DNA of 34,945 nt. Origin: an uncultured bacterium. Lineage in GTDB: Bacteria; JAJVIF01; JAPKYR01. Below the pieces are notes generated by a model. The model was not told where the DNA came from, searched no databases, and saw nothing but the letters and a program-made list of their open reading frames with translations. The position numbers and the translations under genes are program-made. Below, piece by piece: positions 18,989 to 28,104 of this stretch. How positions within the stretch are numbered: the first letter of the stretch is position 1; every line of letters starts with the position of its first letter. The DNA lies in NCBI GenBank assembly GCA_965370205.1, contig CBDUUJ010000002.1:1-34945 (forward strand), given 5' to 3'.

Positions 18989-19566
18989 GGCCTGGCCTCC
19001 ATCTTCTTTTGATCTTGCGTAATGTTCCCGCCCAAATCTTGCCACTCACCATCCTTATGGACAACTCCATACGGCATACGTTGCCAGATAGCAGCACACG
19101 TCTAAATACGCCGAACAGCGGCCACTGATGTGAGGGCCAAAGTAAGACAGTGAGTATACCGACGGGTCTGGTGAAAGTCAACCGAAACCGTCCTTCTATA
19201 TTTCATATGCCAACACTCCGGCCTTCGATTGTATGAGCTTAACGGCAAGCTACAAATAGATACCATAATATTCAATTAGTGTCAAGGGCTTAATGCATGG
19301 TTTCCATTTAAAAAAACAAAAAAAATCACGTGATGTTCGTTTCTGAAATTGGGCTGAGTAACCTGTACTGTCATCTGATAACACGGAATTCGCCCTTTTT
19401 TCCGTTCCGATGTTCTGTACACTTCGATCATCGCGATACTATGTATGCGACATTGGCGGTTTATTGACTGATTGAAAAATCATTTCCCGACATGGCTGCT
19501 ATTGTTTGCGTACGTTAAGACCTTTATAATTAGTTGTGAAGCGGAGTGAACCTGTATCTCTCCAAA

Positions 19567-21252
19567 ATGAAAATCGGACTGAAAATTGCCCCAAGACAAA
19601 TCCAGACTCTGAAGCCGACACTGCAACAGCTTCAGTACTACCGCCTTCTCCAGCAGACCAACCTCGAGCTTGAGCTGGATATCCGCGAGGAGGTTTCCCA
19701 GAATCCCGCTCTGGAAGTTGAAGAGATCCGCCGATGCCCCCAATGCGGAGAGATTCTCCTTGACGGACAACCGTGCGTTACATGTATGTCCAGAAAAGCT
19801 GAGGATGCGGACCGGGAAAAAATCCAGACCGAAAAACTCGACATGATGGAGGAGATATATAACTCCTCGCAGGGGCAGTACGAGGCAAGCACATATGAGG
19901 CGGTTCCGGATGACGAACTTCCCGATACATTCGCCACCGTTGTCCGTTCCATCACTCTCGAAGACCATCTCAAGCGTCGTCTTGCGATCGACTTAATCGA
20001 CCTGAGTGACGATGACTCTTTCATCGCCGAGGAGCTTATAGATCGAATCGACTCGGGTATGTACACGCGTACATCGGATGTAGAAGAGGATTTCGAGCGT
20101 GCCGCGATAAAACGATCCAGAATCGACAATCCGGGATTTATCCGCGCGACCGACGAGGAGCTTGCCGGGGAATTCAACATTTCCATTGAACGTCTGGGGA
20201 AAATAAGACGGCGGATCGCAGAGATCGATCCTGTTGGAAGCGGCCTGCAAAGCTCAATCGAGGTCCTCGCGTTCCAGGCTGAGATATCCGGGGACCTTCC
20301 CGATGACGAACGTGTCGCCCTCGCTGAAATCATTCGCGAGCACCTTAAAGACATCACAAGAGAGCACTTCGCGCGGGTCGGCAAGAAAGTCGGGCTTCCC
20401 GCGAAACGAGTGAAAGAACTCATCGAATACATGCGTCGCAATTTCCATATTCACCCGCGACGCAGATTCGAGGAACAGGAAACAAACGCCGCGACTGAAA
20501 ACCCGTATATTTCCGCCGACGTTCGGATACGCGAGATCGACGGTAAATACATTGTCGAAATTCTGGACTCGGGTCTTCCGCAGTTGAAGATCAACAGGTT
20601 CTACGTGGAGAGTTACCGAAGATTAAAAAAAGACCGCAATTCGTTCAATGCAGATGAGCGAAAACATATCAGGGAATATTTCGAGCGCGCGAGCGGTTAT
20701 ATCGAAAACCTGAACTCGCGGCGAAACACGATGCTCGAAATCACCGAGGAGATAATCAGGCAGCAGGAGGGGTTCCTGCGAAAGGGTCCGCTGTACCTGA
20801 AAAAACTGACTCGTAAACAGGTGGCGGAGACAATCGGCGTGCACCCGTCCACGGTCAGTCGCGCACTCGCGGTGAGATACTGCTGGCTTCCCGATAACTC
20901 CATCGTCTCGTTCAACGTTTTTTTCAATCCGTCCGCATGCTATATCGAAATGATAAAGCAGATTCTCCAGGACGAGACTCCGGAGAAGGTTTTCTCGGAC
21001 GAGGAAATCCGCGACAGAATGGCTGAGCAGGGGCACGATCTGTCGAGGCGTGTAATAACCAAGTACCGCAAGAAGGGCCGCATACCGCCGTCGGGCCGCA
21101 GAAAACGCATATTGATGAAAGAATGGACCGATCAGAAGGAAGAACTCGCTATTCAGACAGAGGAAGCTGAAGAATCTGTAGACGATGAAGAGATCATTCT
21201 TGGAATGGAAATCGAGAATGATCAAGACATCCAGGAGGAGCATGTTAATTAA
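19567..21252 (+). CDS. rpoN: RNA polymerase sigma-54 factor
   Basis: Region I: MKIGLKIAPRQIQTLKPTLQQLQYYRLLQQTNLELELDIREEVSQNPALEV. HTH: QVAETIGVHPSTVSRAL. RpoN-box-like: RRVITKYRKK. The ATG at 19567 gives the canonical MK.GL N-terminus; the track uses the GTG at 19546. Confidence 0.9.
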   Translation: MKIGLKIAPRQIQTLKPTLQQLQYYRLLQQTNLELELDIREEVSQNPALEVEEIRRCPQCGEILLDGQPCVTCMSRKAEDADREKIQTEKLDMMEEIYNSSQGQYEASTYEAVPDDELPDTFATVVRSITLEDHLKRRLAIDLIDLSDDDSFIAEELIDRIDSGMYTRTSDVEEDFERAAIKRSRIDNPGFIRATDEELAGEFNISIERLGKIRRRIAEIDPVGSGLQSSIEVLAFQAEISGDLPDDERVALAEIIREHLKDITREHFARVGKKVGLPAKRVKELIEYMRRNFHIHPRRRFEEQETNAATENPYISADVRIREIDGKYIVEILDSGLPQLKINRFYVESYRRLKKDRNSFNADERKHIREYFERASGYIENLNSRRNTMLEITEEIIRQQEGFLRKGPLYLKKLTRKQVAETIGVHPSTVSRALAVRYCWLPDNSIVSFNVFFNPSACYIEMIKQILQDETPEKVFSDEEIRDRMAEQGHDLSRRVITKYRKKGRIPPSGRRKRILMKEWTDQKEELAIQTEEAEESVDDEEIILGMEIENDQDIQEEHVN

Positions 21253-21261
21253 TAAGTAATT

Positions 21262-21291
21262 TTGACTTGAGGCATTTAAATAGAATATAAT
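21262..21291 (+). promoter_or_regulatory. Near-consensus sigma-70 promoter at the left edge of the low-GC island
   Basis: TTGACT (21262-21267), an 18-nt spacer, then TATAAT (21286-21291). It sits about 58 nt upstream of the ATG at 21349. Confidence 0.5.
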
Positions 21292-21348
21292 CTCAGTCAG
21301 GTAATGGAAGCTAGGTGAGGACTGGAGACTGGATATAAGTTTAAACCT

Positions 21349-22044
21349 ATGGGGCAAAAAATTTCTGTAATTGAATCCAGTCGTCAAAGGCGGGAAGGAC
21401 CTGAAGAAGAATTAATTCAAAAATTTCTTGCTTCGGTAAAATTTTACGTGCCGCATGGCTGTGCACTTACATTTTTTAAATAGCCATCTCTCGATTCTGG
21501 TTTTCCAGACCTAGTTGCCGTAATTTGGAGGATTACTATAGCTCGCAAATGGCCAAACGAGCGAAACGATATAACCTCAAAAGATATCCGGATTTTACAC
21601 TATCTAGCTACAAATGGACCCTCTGAAATAAACCAGCTACAACAAATATTTAGGGATCCAATAATGGGCAACATTAACCAGCTTAAGAAAGCAAAACTGG
21701 TTGTTCAGAATAATACTTCTCTCAAAGCGAAGCCACTAAAGACAATATTCGCTGTTCGAAACATTATTGCAATCGAAGCTAAAATTCGAGATTGGAAAAG
21801 AGCTCTACATCAAGCATGGCTGAATCAGTGGTTTTGTTCAGAGTCTTATATTCTTATACCACATATGCCAAAAGGGACTCAGCTTACCGATTCAGCAAAA
21901 AAAACGGGAATAGGGATTTATGTAATGAGTGACGATGTGCAACAATGGATTCTAAAAATTAATAATAATCTCCCAAAGTCATACGCTTCCTGGCTTTTCA
22001 ATGAATGGGCATGGAAAACTGCTCACTCATCTGGGATAATCTAA
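21349..22044 (+). pseudogene. Interrupted ORF (one in-frame TAG at 21481-21483) with weak PD-(D/E)xK-like motifs around a wHTH-like segment; only 21664..22044 has a canonical start
   Basis: My frame-1 translation reads: MGQKISVIESSRQRREGPEEELIQKFLASVKFYVPHGCALTFFK * PSLDSGFPDLVAVIWRITIARKWPNERNDITSKDIRILHYLATNGPSEINQLQQIFRDPIMGNINQLKK...IIAIEAKIRDWKRALHQAWLNQWFCSESYILIP... There is no ATG/GTG/TTG between 21484 and 21663. FPDLVAV and AIEAK look like PD and ExK nuclease motifs. ILHYLATNGPSEINQL looks like a wHTH. The fold assignment is weak. Confidence 0.5.
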
Positions 22045-22059
22045 GGAAAATAGAGGGAG

Positions 22060-22902
22060 ATGATGGATCTAACTTGGCTTGAAAATCAATTCCCGTATTT
22101 ATCCTCAATTGCACCTCTAGCAAAGGGAGGGCAAAAATTTGTCTTTTCTGCAATACATCCAGATGAAGGAAATGTCGTTCTTAAGCTAATTCTAGGTTCT
22201 GATAATATTGAGCGAGTTCCACGAGAAAAACTAGCTGTACAACGTGTCAATTCTCCTCGCGTGCCTCGCATCATCGATACAGGAACTGGAAGTACTCCCC
22301 TCGCTCCTTGTGTGTGGATTCTTGAGCAATGCATTCTTGGTGAGAATCTTAGGGAAATCCTCAATAAAGGTATTTTTCATGTAGATGATCTTGTTCGTTT
22401 AGGCATACAAATGCTGGAAGCTTTAGTAGATGCAGAGAAGGAGAAAGTAGTACACAGGGACATCAAACCTGAAAACATAATTATGGATCAATCTGGTAGC
22501 TTCTGGCTTCTTGATTTTGGATTGGCTCGTCTACTTGACCTTGAGTCGCTTACTCCGACTGGAAATCCATTCGGTGTCGGGACCCTGGGTTACTGTGCAC
22601 CAGAGCAACTACGAAACAGAAAGAAAGATATCGATTCAAGGACAGATTTATTTTCCATTGGCATAGTTCTTTATGAGTGTGCTACTGGTGTGAATCCTTT
22701 TCGTGATGGAGCACGAGATCCACTTGAGATAGCTGATCGGACTGAGAATCAGCCATTGCCACCATTGCGTCTGTCCTGTGACTCTAAAGGTGAATTGCAG
22801 GATTTTATTGCAGCACTGACACAAAAATTTCAGGATCAACGACCACGAAATGCGGCGGAAGCTCTTGATTGGATGAAGGAAATAGAGGATTCACTTAAGT
22901 AA
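22060..22902 (+). CDS. Hanks-type Ser/Thr protein kinase, catalytic domain only
   Basis: Motifs: G-loop-like LAKGGQKFVF, VVLK (Lys42), HRDIKPEN (Asp134, Asn139), DFG (152-154), GTLGYCAPE and DLFSIGIVLYE. At 280 aa there is no room for sensor, TM or PASTA domains. GAGGGAG lies directly upstream, and the gene starts 15 nt after the previous stop. Confidence 0.9.
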   Translation: MMDLTWLENQFPYLSSIAPLAKGGQKFVFSAIHPDEGNVVLKLILGSDNIERVPREKLAVQRVNSPRVPRIIDTGTGSTPLAPCVWILEQCILGENLREILNKGIFHVDDLVRLGIQMLEALVDAEKEKVVHRDIKPENIIMDQSGSFWLLDFGLARLLDLESLTPTGNPFGVGTLGYCAPEQLRNRKKDIDSRTDLFSIGIVLYECATGVNPFRDGARDPLEIADRTENQPLPPLRLSCDSKGELQDFIAALTQKFQDQRPRNAAEALDWMKEIEDSLK

Positions 22903-22984
22903 CATAAAAATGCAATTCGGAATTTCAAGTTTGAATGTATTGCGTTTACCTTATATGTAAATAAGTAGACATTAGGAGTAATAG

Positions 22985-24202
22985 ATGGACCTTTATCTGC
23001 AATTTGGCTGGGGAATGATGGAGCACTGTCGGGCTCTTATTAGCGAATGGAACGGTGGAACCGTGGTCCTTAGTCCGCGGGACCTTGAACCTGAACAACT
23101 GGTTCGTTTCTCGGAAGACATTCGGGAATTGCCGGGCGGACAAATTCTGTTTGACCCACAGTTTTTTCTGCCAAGGTGTGACCATTCCAGACTAACAAGA
23201 CATGCTTTCTGGCCAGACAACTACGATTCAGGAACTTATTTGCATGGTGAAGGACAAGCCAGATTGCTTAATGATTTAATCAACCTGAATGCTGAGCTCG
23301 GATGCGAGAAATTTATTTTACCAGGTCTTCTTGGAAGCAGAGTGAATGATCTCTGGCTGGAATTTCATTCCAGTTGTATTAATACTGTTAAAACACTTGG
23401 ATCAGATATACCTTTGTTAGTGACTCTAGCATTAGAATCAAGCGCTGTTAGCGATCCAGATCAAATCCATGACCTTTTAACCGTTGCTGAGGATTGGGAT
23501 GTTGATGGATATTACATTGTATGTGAACATCCGAATGGAAGTTACCTCGTTGATGAACCACTATGGTTGGCGAATATTCTTGATTTAACAGCAGGCCTAA
23601 GAATCATGGGTAAAAAAGTAATTCTAGGCTATTGCAATCATCAGATGTTAATTGCTGCAAATTCATTGACAAACGCTATTTGTTCAGGTACCTGGATGAA
23701 TGTTCGTTCATTCCCCCCTGCGAAGTTTTTTTCAGAATATCAAGAAGAAATCAGGAAGCGTAGTATTTGGATCTACAGTCCAGATACTCTGACAGAATAC
23801 AAAATCCCATTTCTTGATATAGCATGGAGGCAAAGGATTCTACACCTTATCAATCCTAACCCTGAGTATGAAAGCGAATATGTTGAAAGTATTTTTTCTG
23901 AAGTACAACCAACAACCGTTGGGTTGTCAGAACGGGATGCTTTTCGTCATTATCTGCATTGCCTTAGAAAACAGGTTCTTGAAGCAACACATAAGACATT
24001 TATGGAAACAGTCGAATTCCATGAATCGATTCTTAAAAAAGCTGAAGCGTTGTTAATTGATTTAAAAAAGAAAGGCGTTACAGGACAAAATAGAGACTTT
24101 TCTGATATTATTGACGTCAATCGATCGGCTCTTGCTGTTCTTGAGAGCAATCGCGGAGCCATGCTTAGACGGAAATGGACAAATCTTTGGGATGAAAAAT
24201 AA
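22985..24202 (+). CDS. Hypothetical 405-aa protein; the N-terminal ~240 aa alternate strand and helix (barrel-like), and the C-terminal ~150 aa are helical
   Basis: AGGAG lies 7 nt upstream. Candidate strands: LYLQFGWG, TVVLSPRD, ILFDPQFF, KFILPGLL, LLVTLALE, GYYIVCEH, KVILGYCN and NAICSGTW, each followed by an amphipathic helix. I recognise no catalytic signature, and there is no CxCxxC zinc site as in TGT enzymes. Confidence 0.8.
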   Translation: MDLYLQFGWGMMEHCRALISEWNGGTVVLSPRDLEPEQLVRFSEDIRELPGGQILFDPQFFLPRCDHSRLTRHAFWPDNYDSGTYLHGEGQARLLNDLINLNAELGCEKFILPGLLGSRVNDLWLEFHSSCINTVKTLGSDIPLLVTLALESSAVSDPDQIHDLLTVAEDWDVDGYYIVCEHPNGSYLVDEPLWLANILDLTAGLRIMGKKVILGYCNHQMLIAANSLTNAICSGTWMNVRSFPPAKFFSEYQEEIRKRSIWIYSPDTLTEYKIPFLDIAWRQRILHLINPNPEYESEYVESIFSEVQPTTVGLSERDAFRHYLHCLRKQVLEATHKTFMETVEFHESILKKAEALLIDLKKKGVTGQNRDFSDIIDVNRSALAVLESNRGAMLRRKWTNLWDEK

Positions 24203-24228
24203 ATAGTCAGTTTAATATGCATAAATAA

Positions 24229-24258
24229 CGCGCCCTTGTTACAGGGCGCGTCGTTTTG
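24229..24258 (+). terminator. Rho-independent terminator closing the island (usable from both strands)
   Basis: ACGCGCCC-ttgttaca-GGGCGCGT followed by CGTTTT. On the minus strand the same stem is followed by TATTTAT, downstream of the HD-GYP gene. A second small hairpin, ATCTCCACG-aat-CGTGGAGAT, lies at 24275-24295. Confidence 0.75.
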
Positions 24259-24296
24259 AGATACGATCGAGGAATCTCCACGAATCGTGGAGATCA

Positions 24297-25457
24297 TCAG
24301 TCGCTCATTTCATCCCCGTCGTAATTCTCCCCCTCAACAAGCTCACAGGATATGGATTCAGCACTGATTTCGCCGCTGTCGATACCCAGCAGGTCGATCC
24401 CTGCGCTCTCGTTCGAGGCCATCGGCGCGAGGAGATTGCAGAGGGTCTCGACAATTTCCGGATCGAACTGAGTCCCTGCATTCCTCCGAAGCTCCTCGAA
24501 AGCCTCTTCCGGCGGAAGACTTCTCCGATACGGTCTCTCGTTCGTCATCGCGTCATATGCGTCCGCGACGAATGTTATTTTTACCTCAATGGGAATCTCA
24601 TCGCCCGTGAGGCCATCCGGATATCCCTTCCCGTCGATCCGCTCGTGATGCCATCTCACGATCTGCCGTGGGATTTTAAACAGCGGATGCTGCATGGGTT
24701 TGAGAATTTCCTCGCCGATCACCGGGTGACGCATCACAATCTTGAATTCTTCAGGAGTCAGATCACGGGGTTTTTTCAGGATATCGTCCGGCACACCGAT
24801 CTTGCCGATGTCATGCATCATCGCGCCGATCTCGACCGCCTGAATCCTCTTCGGCTCAAGTCCGACCTTTCGAGCGATCGCGACGGCATAGGCGGTCACC
24901 ATGTTTGAATGTCCCCTGGTGAACGAGTCCTTAGCCTCAAGCGCGACCGCCAGGGTCTCGATCGCGTCGAGATAATTCGAGAGGAGAATTTCCTGAAGTA
25001 CCGCGCTCTCGAAAATGGGAATCAGATAGTGCGTGAGTGCGAGGAGTTCGTTGAAATGCCCCTCGCGGACCCCTTCTCCATCTGTCCCGGCCAGAACCAG
25101 TCCGCCAAGGTACTCATTATTTTTTACAAACGGAATACCGACGATGGAATACTGCATCTCGCCGGGAATATAATTCGAATACTCGACCGGAACGCAGACA
25201 GGAACACGATCCTCCGCAAGCTGCTCGAAAATCGAGTCCACGACCGGATTGTTCCGCCCCCGACTGACCGCAATCGGTTCCATGTATCGATCCGCGATGT
25301 AATGGTAGAGGCGTATAAATCCGCTGCCGGTTGTCAGCCGGTTATTGATATACTCCAGAAGATCGCCGAAACCCTCGCGCCAGTTAACGGCCTGGGATAT
25401 CTTCTCGGCGATGAAGTCAATCATCTCACTAGAATTTAACGTGTTCGGTTTTACCAT
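24297..25457 (-). CDS. HD-GYP domain c-di-GMP phosphodiesterase with an N-terminal GAF-like domain
   Basis: HDIGKIGVPDDIL and HHERIDGKGYPDGL are the HD and GYP signatures. About 170 aa of sensory region lie N-terminal to them. Confidence 0.85.
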   Translation of the reverse strand: MVKPNTLNSSEMIDFIAEKISQAVNWREGFGDLLEYINNRLTTGSGFIRLYHYIADRYMEPIAVSRGRNNPVVDSIFEQLAEDRVPVCVPVEYSNYIPGEMQYSIVGIPFVKNNEYLGGLVLAGTDGEGVREGHFNELLALTHYLIPIFESAVLQEILLSNYLDAIETLAVALEAKDSFTRGHSNMVTAYAVAIARKVGLEPKRIQAVEIGAMMHDIGKIGVPDDILKKPRDLTPEEFKIVMRHPVIGEEILKPMQHPLFKIPRQIVRWHHERIDGKGYPDGLTGDEIPIEVKITFVADAYDAMTNERPYRRSLPPEEAFEELRRNAGTQFDPEIVETLCNLLAPMASNESAGIDLLGIDSGEISAESISCELVEGENYDGDEMSD

Positions 25458-27792: not shown

Positions 27793-28104
27793 GTAGCGCG
27801 GACGTCCCGTCGGCTGTTGAAAAAAAATAATATTTCTCAATTTATCAATATATTAAATTATGCCGCCCACAAACTTAATCCTGTCTCGACCGGTTTTTTA
27901 ATAATCTACGGGTTTGTGGGTGTCCTTTTCTGGATGATTGACGATAGAAAGGACATCCACAAACCCGATGGTTATCAGGGAATTGACCACATATGCATCA
28001 AGTTTGTGGGCGGCATAGATGTGTTTCTGGTTGCTAATTATATTAGTGCGGGAATATAAGCTGTTTGATGTTAAAAATCTGATGCGCGGGACGTCCGCGC
28101 TACA
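27793..28104. repeat. Nested-palindrome intergenic element A (MITE-like, 18-bp perfect terminal inverted repeats)
   Basis: Outer pair: tgtagcgcggacgtcccg (27792-27809) / cgggacgtccgcgctaca (28087-28104). Middle pair: tatgccgcccacaaactt (27859-27876) / aagtttgtgggcggcata (28000-28017). Inner pair: cgggtttgtgggtgtccttt (27909-27928) / aaaggacatccacaaacccg (27948-27967). The 5' module is related to element B at 31514-31547. Confidence 0.6.

Follow-up and report, generated by a model that had tools for sequence, protein, structure and literature searches.

The window analysed here comprises positions 1 to 34,945 of contig CBDUUJ010000002.1 (assembly GCA_965370205.1), 34,945 nucleotides of DNA from an uncultured bacterium. 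Between the gene for sigma-54 (rpoN) and a gene for an HD_5/HD (HD-GYP-type) protein it contains an AT-rich island, at ~21200-24300, in which the fraction of guanine plus cytosine (GC) is 0.36-0.45 compared to 0.49-0.57 in the flanks. The island holds three co-oriented genes: orf1, for a nuclease-like winged-helix protein, a gene for a Ser/Thr protein kinase, and p405, for a predicted TIM-barrel protein. In that order, their GC is 0.38, 0.43 and 0.41, and their GC at third codon positions (GC3) is 0.31, 0.30 and 0.33; the 20 other long open reading frames (ORFs) of the window have a GC of 0.48-0.55 and a GC3 of 0.52-0.68. A first-pass annotation, made from the sequence alone, had described this block, and both the three ORFs and the intergenic gaps of 15 and 82 nt lie where it placed them. 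The contrast in composition that it reported is strong and real, but its figure for the flanks (58-63%) was too high; the actual value is ~50-55%. The features are listed in Table 1.

Table 1 Features of the AT-rich island in the window
Feature	Position	Strand	Size or basis
Promoter-like site, sigma-70-type TTGACT-18-TATAAT	21262-21291	+	58 nt 5' of orf1; 11/12 positions match
orf1, PD-(D/E)xK-type nuclease-like with winged-helix insert, broken by one nonsense codon	21349-22044	+	231 codons
Codon 45 of orf1, an in-frame TAG where homologs have the conserved Glu of F-R/K-E-P	21481-21483	+	translation, alignment
Minimal Hanks-type Ser/Thr protein kinase, kinase domain only	22060-22902	+	280 aa; Pfam Pkinase
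p405, stand-alone TIM barrel (~residues 1-270) plus C-terminal helical domain	22985-24202	+	405 aa; AlphaFold2 model
G+C-rich hairpin ACGCGCCCT-loop-AGGGCGCGT followed by TTTT, probable terminator between convergent genes	24229-24258	.	inverted repeat I8

The kinase matched Pfam Pkinase (PF00069) with 107.1 bits (cut-off 31.7, E = 1.3e-30). Because this match covers residues 23-265 of 280, there is no additional domain, in agreement with the first-pass annotation, which had described the kinase as lacking a sensor, transmembrane or partner-binding domain. All of the catalytic motifs listed there are present (K42, H132-R133-D134, N139, D152-F-G and A180-P-E), together with a G-loop (GGQKFV), the alphaC glutamate E56 and the full segment H132-R-D-I-K-P-E-N139, and the catalytic motifs are conserved across 21 cassette kinases. 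In PADLOC, the best match was the PD-T4-6 model PDLC04042 (1.3e-42, positions 16-273 of a 292-position model), with at least 20 further PD-T4-6 models also matching, although these models respond to generic kinase domains as well. NCBIfam models for MAD6 (1.3e-29) and PglW (4.8e-21) gave partial matches limited to the kinase domain, with scores far under the curated cut-offs (103 vs 460 bits and 74 vs 990 bits, respectively). The NCBIfam PknB model likewise matched the kinase domain only, and far under its cut-off.

For orf1 we found 573 homologs, 206-285 aa in length and all uninterrupted. In a 39-sequence alignment, an (F/C)-R/K-E-P motif comes first; strands reading F-P-D-(L/I)-V and I-E-A-K come next, and a Q/N helix precedes the Trp-rich C-terminal helix SYASWLFNEWAW. 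The invariant residues are E..P-D..E-A-K..Q. In the numbering of the homolog P0123, E58 is conserved in at least 90% of the 39 sequences, while P66-D67 and E156-A157-K158 are invariant. In the AlphaFold2 model of P0123 (predicted local distance difference test, pLDDT, 93.7), a first helix is followed by the E-bearing and the D-bearing strands, then by the winged helix, the ExK strand, a helix and a last strand. Its winged helix-turn-helix (wHTH) domain follows the second strand and so sits between the PD and ExK strands. Foldseek matched this part of the model locally to MarR, YodB, Z-alpha and ScpB (probability 0.95-1.0, root-mean-square deviation (rmsd) 1.3-3 Angstrom, 57-75 residues). This confirms the wHTH fold locally, and there are weak MarR, HTH_24 and TrmB sequence matches besides. 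Whole-chain matches to the nuclease-fold proteins VC1899, Card1 and BsaWI were weak (probability 0.2-0.33, template-modelling (TM) score ~0.2), and that to Csa3 was of similarly low probability. No alignment member matched a Pfam nuclease family at E <= 0.5, the only hits being weak wHTH matches, and a PDB sequence search with the orf1 family also returned weak wHTH matches only. The orf1 protein itself had no Pfam, NCBIfam or PADLOC family match, with zero families in PADLOC-DB v2 at E <= 1. From the motifs and the modelled topology we infer that orf1 encodes a PD-(D/E)xK core into which a wHTH domain has been inserted.

In the window, orf1 carries an in-frame TAG. The alignment column in which it falls is Glu in at least 90% of the 39 sequences, and the codons around it read TTT AAA TAG CCA in the window vs TTC AAA GAA CCC in L017, the locus with the closest relative of p405 (loci collected for comparison carry L numbers). 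The Glu replaced is probably catalytic, and this copy of the cassette is probably not fully functional. The next in-frame start, at 21664 (codon 106, 60 codons past the TAG), would give a 126-aa product that has lost both E and D. Elsewhere in the window TAG serves as a regular stop codon and ends 5 of the 23 ORFs; given this usage, and given that the homologous residue is Glu, pyrrolysine insertion or other read-through was rejected. Every other invariant residue of orf1 is kept, and the kinase and p405 are intact, suggesting that the lesion is very recent, a sequencing or consensus error, or a polymorphism in the population. In a search for further copies of the strain, the exact kinase and p405 proteins of the window were not found on record, and a 34-mer spanning the TAG was absent from JGI metagenome contigs.

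The p405 protein had no match in Pfam (E <= 1; alignment members E <= 0.5) or NCBIfam, none in PADLOC-DB v2 (zero families at E <= 1) and no sequence match in the PDB. No housekeeping enzyme family, a match to which the first-pass annotation had named as contrary to its reading, appeared for p405 in Pfam, NCBIfam or PADLOC. One search for the p405 family gave 1217 homologs and another gave 908 clusters at 50% identity; among the 150 listed, full-length homologs are ~400 aa long and have no fused domain. The AlphaFold2 model of p405 (pLDDT 88.4, predicted TM score (pTM) 0.89) consists of eight beta/alpha units and then a helical domain. In 40 sequences of ~55% identity, ~90 residues are invariant, among them D33, D57, Q59, D66-H67, E181-H182 and H219-Q220, and the polar ones follow barrel strands. 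The loop S234-GTWMNVRSFPP is invariant and poorly modelled. This pattern of conservation suggests that p405 is an enzyme.

The best PDB fold matches of p405 in Foldseek were tRNA-guanine transglycosylases (TGTs; TMq 0.43-0.51, rmsd 7-10 Angstrom), and its top matches in BFVD include phage 'queuine tRNA-ribosyltransferases', which are TGT-like. Membership of the TGT/DpdA group was rejected because hhalign of the p405 profile (45 sequences) against eight TGTs (E. coli tgt and seven tgt genes from phage-collection records) gave a probability of just 0.14%; there was no match to Pfam TGT (PF01702) either. TGTs have a zinc site, CxCxxC...H, in their C-terminal subdomain. This motif is absent among the invariant and nearly invariant columns of p405, in which the conserved Cys residues are the isolated C15, C217 and C265. 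Thus p405 resembles TGT/DpdA proteins in having a modelled TIM barrel with extra helical elements and in its top PDB matches, but differs from them in showing no sequence or profile similarity, no zinc motif and a TM of only ~0.45-0.5. We treat p405 as a new TIM-barrel family for which TGT is the nearest known fold. By sequence, p405 and orf1 are both orphan families outside every library searched, and the trio joins them to a kinase.

This trio is a conserved unit. The 15 loci collected with p405 all have the kinase gene directly 5' of it, and orf1 as well wherever enough DNA is available. Searching independently from orf1 gave 65 loci, 57 of them with at least 2.3 kb downstream; in 52 of these 57 the kinase and p405 follow in the same order. 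The exceptions are remnants or lone orf1 copies; among them, L088 and L094 have orf1 without kinase or p405, and L043 and L074 have orf1 with a kinase remnant only. More distant copies of the trio, with p405 proteins 24-28% identical, are carried by two Bacillus plasmids and by a plasmid of the haloarchaeon Natribaculum breve. The first-pass annotation had named a lack of co-localisation in other genomes as contrary to its reading; in these loci and plasmids the three genes do co-localise. In other loci the genes abut or overlap, which is consistent with co-translation and with one functional unit. From their conserved residues, all three products look catalytically competent and under constraint. 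The distribution is patchy over at least 12 phyla. Hosts include Acidobacteriota, Planctomycetota, Desulfobacterota, Myxococcota, Gammaproteobacteria, Campylobacterota, Actinomycetota, Armatimonadota, Gemmatimonadota, Zixibacteria, Latescibacterota, Binatota and Clostridia, with Desulfosarcina widdelii, Thioalkalivibrio denitrificans and Nannocystis punicea among the isolates, and one contig was binned as Promethearchaeota (an Asgard archaeon). Intact trios lie at 5.75 Mb of the D. widdelii sequence AP021875, in NZ_MVBK01000051 of T. denitrificans and at 65.2-67.9 kb of the Bacillus mycoides plasmid NZ_CP128131.

No constant fourth gene was seen among the trio loci. Occasional extras are a Peptidase_M78 gene, alone or paired with an HTH gene (L022, L025), a gene for a metallophosphoesterase (L029) and a gene for a ~210-aa unknown protein. 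The last adjoins the trio, on either side, in four independent loci (L005:1921-2568, L041/L042:9268-9891, L058:7870-8493 and L077:7960-8586) and could be an occasional accessory gene. On the Natribaculum breve plasmid (CP095393), a gene for a calcineurin-like metallophosphoesterase (L029:7159-7848; Metallophos_2, 3.7e-27) lies 22 nt after the trio on the same strand, and its product could serve the kinase as a partner phosphatase; upstream of the same trio lies a gene for an Eco57I/type IIG-like methyltransferase of 843 aa. The M78 (ImmA/IrrE-like) gene stands before the cassette in L022:7801-8328, where it overlaps orf1, and in L025:5487-6501, where it comes with an HTH_3 gene. Such peptidase/HTH pairs are a kind of regulator met on mobile elements.

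The neighbourhoods of the cassette are in many cases those of mobile and defence islands. As a rule, the cassette is poorer in GC than the host DNA on either side. Tyrosine integrases or recombinases adjoin it in L016, L018, L022 and L028, and insertion sequence (IS) elements lie beside or inside it in L016, L023, L025 and L013. Within 10 kb, L022 has BilABCD, an MmeI-type restriction-modification gene and a PLD-SNF2 helicase, and L025 has SNF2-NOV_C, AAA_15, DUF1156, DUF499 and a ThiF gene. Further examples are a DUF1156 methylase with a PLD helicase (L010), HKD-SNF2 (L001), PIN-MazE (L026) and the Eco57I-like methylase of L029, while 227 further neighbours include IetA, PDC-S02, BrxHI, AbiEi/AbiEii and mad2. 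Judged from the listed neighbours, the association of the trio with defence genes is suggestive rather than statistical. The defence-island setting proposed in the first-pass annotation was borne out in part: integrases, IS elements and known defence genes recur in many loci, but many other loci have housekeeping neighbours only.

Decay of the cassette is frequent. An IS3-like element is inserted within p405 at L013:8798-10084, a DDE transposase separates the kinase from p405 at L025:8710-9873, and another insertion lies between orf1 and the kinase at L067:5690-7352. At L030:5995-7182 p405 is split, and L015 has frameshifts. Frequent decay is usual for costly defence genes.

The closest homolog of p405 (59% identity) is in the JGI contig L017, where rpoN and the HD-GYP gene again enclose the trio, at the identical site. 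Flanking proteins of L017 and the window are 67-79% identical, apart from two neighbours at just 42-46%; within the cassette, identity is 41% for orf1, 65% for the kinase and 59% for p405. The L017 cassette (L017:8402-11212) is equally AT-rich (GC3 0.29-0.34). A Planctomycetota metagenome-assembled genome (CAYGZQ010000016, L039), with an rpoN product 76% identical to that of the window and flanking proteins 71-78% identical, has a different cargo of 2.4 kb at the equivalent site (L039:8617-11015): a 291-aa protein with an HSDR_N_2 nuclease domain and a 266-aa ion-channel protein (TTVGYGD). This difference in cargo shows the site to be variable, and the rpoN/HD-GYP junction behaves as a variable hot spot without a visible integrase. 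As the first-pass annotation had noted, there is no integrase or transposase at the island; none of the window's neighbour genes that are syntenic with the annotated L017 encodes an integrase. A classical integration signature was rejected as well, there being no tRNA, Rfam match, flanking direct repeats or nearby integrase.

The proposal that the island is a horizontally acquired transcription unit holds insofar as it forms a discrete, unit-like block of foreign composition. However, the orthologous cassette of L017 is likewise AT-rich and occupies the same spot, and the island may not have entered the window genome recently. Either the trio was acquired before the split of the window and L017 lineages and did not ameliorate, or an AT-rich allele was replaced repeatedly. 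The cassette GC3 is ~0.30 both in the window (21349-24202) and in L017, with 0.50-0.68 in the flanks and a flank protein identity of ~75%.

The island is one copy of a widespread, mobile three-gene cassette, and we see about an even chance that this cassette is a defence or conflict module, directed against phages or mobile elements. The first-pass reading of an anti-phage or abortive-infection module is thus supported in part, by conserved synteny and genomic context. Support for a defence role comes from the fixed gene order, the patchy spread, the mobile and defence contexts, the variable site, the frequent decay and the apparent catalytic competence of the products. In such a module, the three products would act together, probably as a complex. 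The sensor-less kinase would be the switch, held or triggered via its partners or by a protein of the invader, and would then phosphorylate a partner or host targets, by analogy with Stk2. The PD-(D/E)xK/wHTH protein would be the DNA-binding and DNA-cutting arm. The TIM-barrel protein would be a second catalytic arm, which may act on nucleic-acid bases or nucleotides, and the kinase would turn on the nucleic-acid-directed activity of the wHTH nuclease, of the TIM-barrel enzyme, or of both. Any specific wiring of this kind is considerably less secure than a defence role as such, and well short of an even chance. A more far-reaching version holds that the trio is a new form of kinase-governed immunity in Bacteria and Archaea, in which the kinase switches a nuclease with an embedded wHTH domain and a TIM-barrel enzyme that attacks or exchanges bases in tRNA or DNA. 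We consider this version unlikely, if well above the most doubtful of the alternatives discussed below.

Several observations weigh against a defence role. Many loci, the window included, have housekeeping neighbours only. The cassette was absent from 50,697 phage records and was found in just three IMG/VR contigs. Neither orf1 nor p405 matches any PADLOC model. The nuclease assignment of orf1 draws on motifs and predicted topology, with whole-protein Foldseek matches to nuclease folds of low probability. Moreover, the cassette in the window and L017 looks vertically inherited at an ordinary chromosomal site, and a domesticated regulatory role would also fit.

That last possibility leads to a reading of the trio as an ordinary signalling or metabolic cassette, spread horizontally, in which orf1 would be a winged-helix regulator acting with the kinase and a TIM-barrel metabolic enzyme in a stress or nutrient response. 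It draws on the position of the window and L017 cassettes between rpoN and HD-GYP, without mobile or defence genes nearby and seemingly vertical, on several other loci with metabolic neighbours only, and on the fact that most TIM barrels are metabolic enzymes. We nevertheless consider it improbable: the invariant E/D/ExK set of orf1 points to catalysis beyond DNA binding, no metabolic partner genes or transporters recur among the loci, p405 matches no curated enzyme family, and the spread is patchy and linked to islands and plasmids, with frequent pseudogenes. Modification-restriction is a little less likely still; here p405, as a TGT/DpdA-like base-exchange enzyme, would mark the DNA of the host, and the kinase would tune the balance between this marking and the cutting of unmarked DNA by the wHTH nuclease. 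Although TGTs lead the PDB matches of p405, phage queuine tRNA-ribosyltransferases are among its top BFVD matches and a nuclease-like partner is always there, the structural agreement is loose (TM 0.43-0.51, rmsd 7-10 Angstrom) and the hhalign probability against the eight TGTs, the Pfam search and the missing CxCxxC...H motif all speak against a TGT; nor are genes for the synthesis of preQ0/queuosine or another precursor linked to the trio at the loci. Of the explanations considered here, we find it the hardest to credit.

The cassette might instead be a selfish addiction module of the toxin-antitoxin (TA) type, one component being toxic and another neutralising it, which stabilises the islands and plasmids that carry it and provides no immunity. 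It is indeed found on plasmids and integrative islands and beside other TA pairs; it is tightly linked, compact and AT-rich, and single genes in it are often inactivated. However, three conserved enzymes exceed the needs of a TA pair, and the kinase and p405 persist without an intact orf1 in the window, just as orf1 persists alone (L088, L094) or with kinase remnants (L043, L074). With partial states of both kinds surviving, no simple obligatory antidote relation is visible, and we give addiction as the sole role a low probability; TA and defence roles are not mutually exclusive. Compatible with all of these readings is the view that the island in the window genome is a non-functional relic, whatever the family does elsewhere. 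This we think somewhat likelier to be right than wrong. The nonsense codon lies at a conserved Glu, the first in-frame start after it is codon 106, TAG normally acts as a stop in the window, and L013, L015, L030, L043 and L074 show similar decay. Against this, the otherwise intact state of orf1 and its neighbours would fit a lesion that is very recent, erroneous or polymorphic, as noted above, and the kinase and p405 might work without orf1.

How does the trio compare with known systems? Ser/Thr kinases can confer phage defence, as Stk2 and the single-gene system PD-T4-6 do (PMC9519451). The first-pass annotation knew of no named system with this composition. This holds for orf1 and p405, which match none, but not for the kinase, whose best match in the defence library is PD-T4-6 of E. 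coli (Vassallo et al. 2022, PMC9519451), likewise a Hanks-type Ser/Thr kinase. PD-T4-6 is one 436-aa gene (1311 nt, RRM76169.1) with a kinase domain at ~10-284 and a C-terminal extension, whereas the cassette kinase, at 280 aa, is a bare domain, and in essentially every locus two conserved genes flank it. Because the reference is a lone 436-aa gene with an extension, the cassette does not have the single-gene architecture of PD-T4-6. Defence was shown for PD-T4-6 (PMC9519451) and is a prediction for the cassette.

For Stk2 of Staphylococcus epidermidis, kinase-mediated abortive infection is cited in the same paper (ref. 20 in PMC9519451). Its sequence relation to the cassette kinase is at the general kinase-fold level only, and the logic of a trigger that activates a kinase and of phosphorylation that stops infection would be carried over to the cassette by analogy. 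The trigger of Stk2 is the phage protein PacK; the kinase works on its own and is not known to have a nuclease or TIM-barrel partner. The predicted orf1 protein shares with Card1/VC1899 effectors, Mrr-like enzymes and BsaWI the E..PD..ExK set, in the model the alpha-beta-beta-beta-alpha-beta order, and a winged helix, but its wHTH domain lies inside the predicted nuclease core and it has no CARF or other sensor domain. Pgl/BREX type 2 (PglW), MADS (Mad6) and TerY-P, like the cassette, place a Ser/Thr kinase in a multi-gene system borne on islands. Their partners are missing from the cassette, which has no PglX/Y/Z, other Mad proteins, TerY or PP2C. We place the cassette with those multi-gene systems of genomic islands that combine a Ser/Thr kinase and a nuclease. 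In the literature we found no description of a trio of kinase, nuclease-like and TIM-barrel proteins.

If the trio is a defence system, it would be a module centred on a minimal eukaryotic-like kinase and with a wide distribution, from numerous bacterial phyla to Bacillus plasmids, a haloarchaeal plasmid and an Asgard-binned contig. It would offer a tractable case of phosphorylation-controlled immunity with defined partners, unlike the single-gene Stk2 and PD-T4-6, and would give a role to two orphan families, amounting to ~900 TIM-barrel clusters (50% identity) and several hundred nuclease-like sequences. Were the base-exchange version true, the effector chemistry would be one not yet known in defence. 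Current annotation software would probably hide the trio by naming its kinase alone, as PD-T4-6. The copy in the window is itself less dramatic, probably being crippled by the nonsense codon in its nuclease gene.

A phage origin of the cassette was rejected, given the 0 of 50,697 phage records and the three IMG/VR trio contigs, which have no clearly viral neighbours.

The near-consensus promoter that the first-pass annotation placed upstream of orf1 is present and is the best-scoring site in 21000-24500, although the number of promoter-like sites across the region is not above shuffled expectation. A TTGACA..TATACT site also lies 5' of the orthologous cassette in L017. We regard the TTGACT-18-TATAAT sequence as a promoter-like site that may drive the island. 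At the other end, the strong terminator of the first-pass annotation proved to be a G+C-rich 9-bp hairpin (24229-24251) with merely TTTT behind it, which a simple terminator scan missed. The RNA fold of 24200-24300 has z = -3.85 vs shuffles, and the hairpin stem plus the adjoining GAGATACGATCG is conserved in L017. Since the hairpin sits between convergent genes, it may serve both transcription units. A second hairpin, GGAATCTCCACGAATCGTGGAGATCATC, is separate from it, at 24270-24296, directly 3' of the stop codon (24297-24299) of the HD-GYP gene, which is on the - strand, and on that gene's own strand.

Two more short dips in GC (0.38-0.42) occur in the window. One, at 19100-19550, is intergenic and separates the S8-peptidase gene from rpoN, which is transcribed away from it; the other, at 27800-28100, lies between a radical-SAM gene and a metallo-beta-lactamase-fold gene. 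The product of rpoN (19546-21252) has a CxxC...CxxC segment, RRCPQCGEILLDGQPCVTC, at ~residues 63-81, between the activator-interacting and core-binding regions. This segment is kept in L039 as RRCPRCGEILLDGQPCTTC and may be a zinc-ribbon insert.

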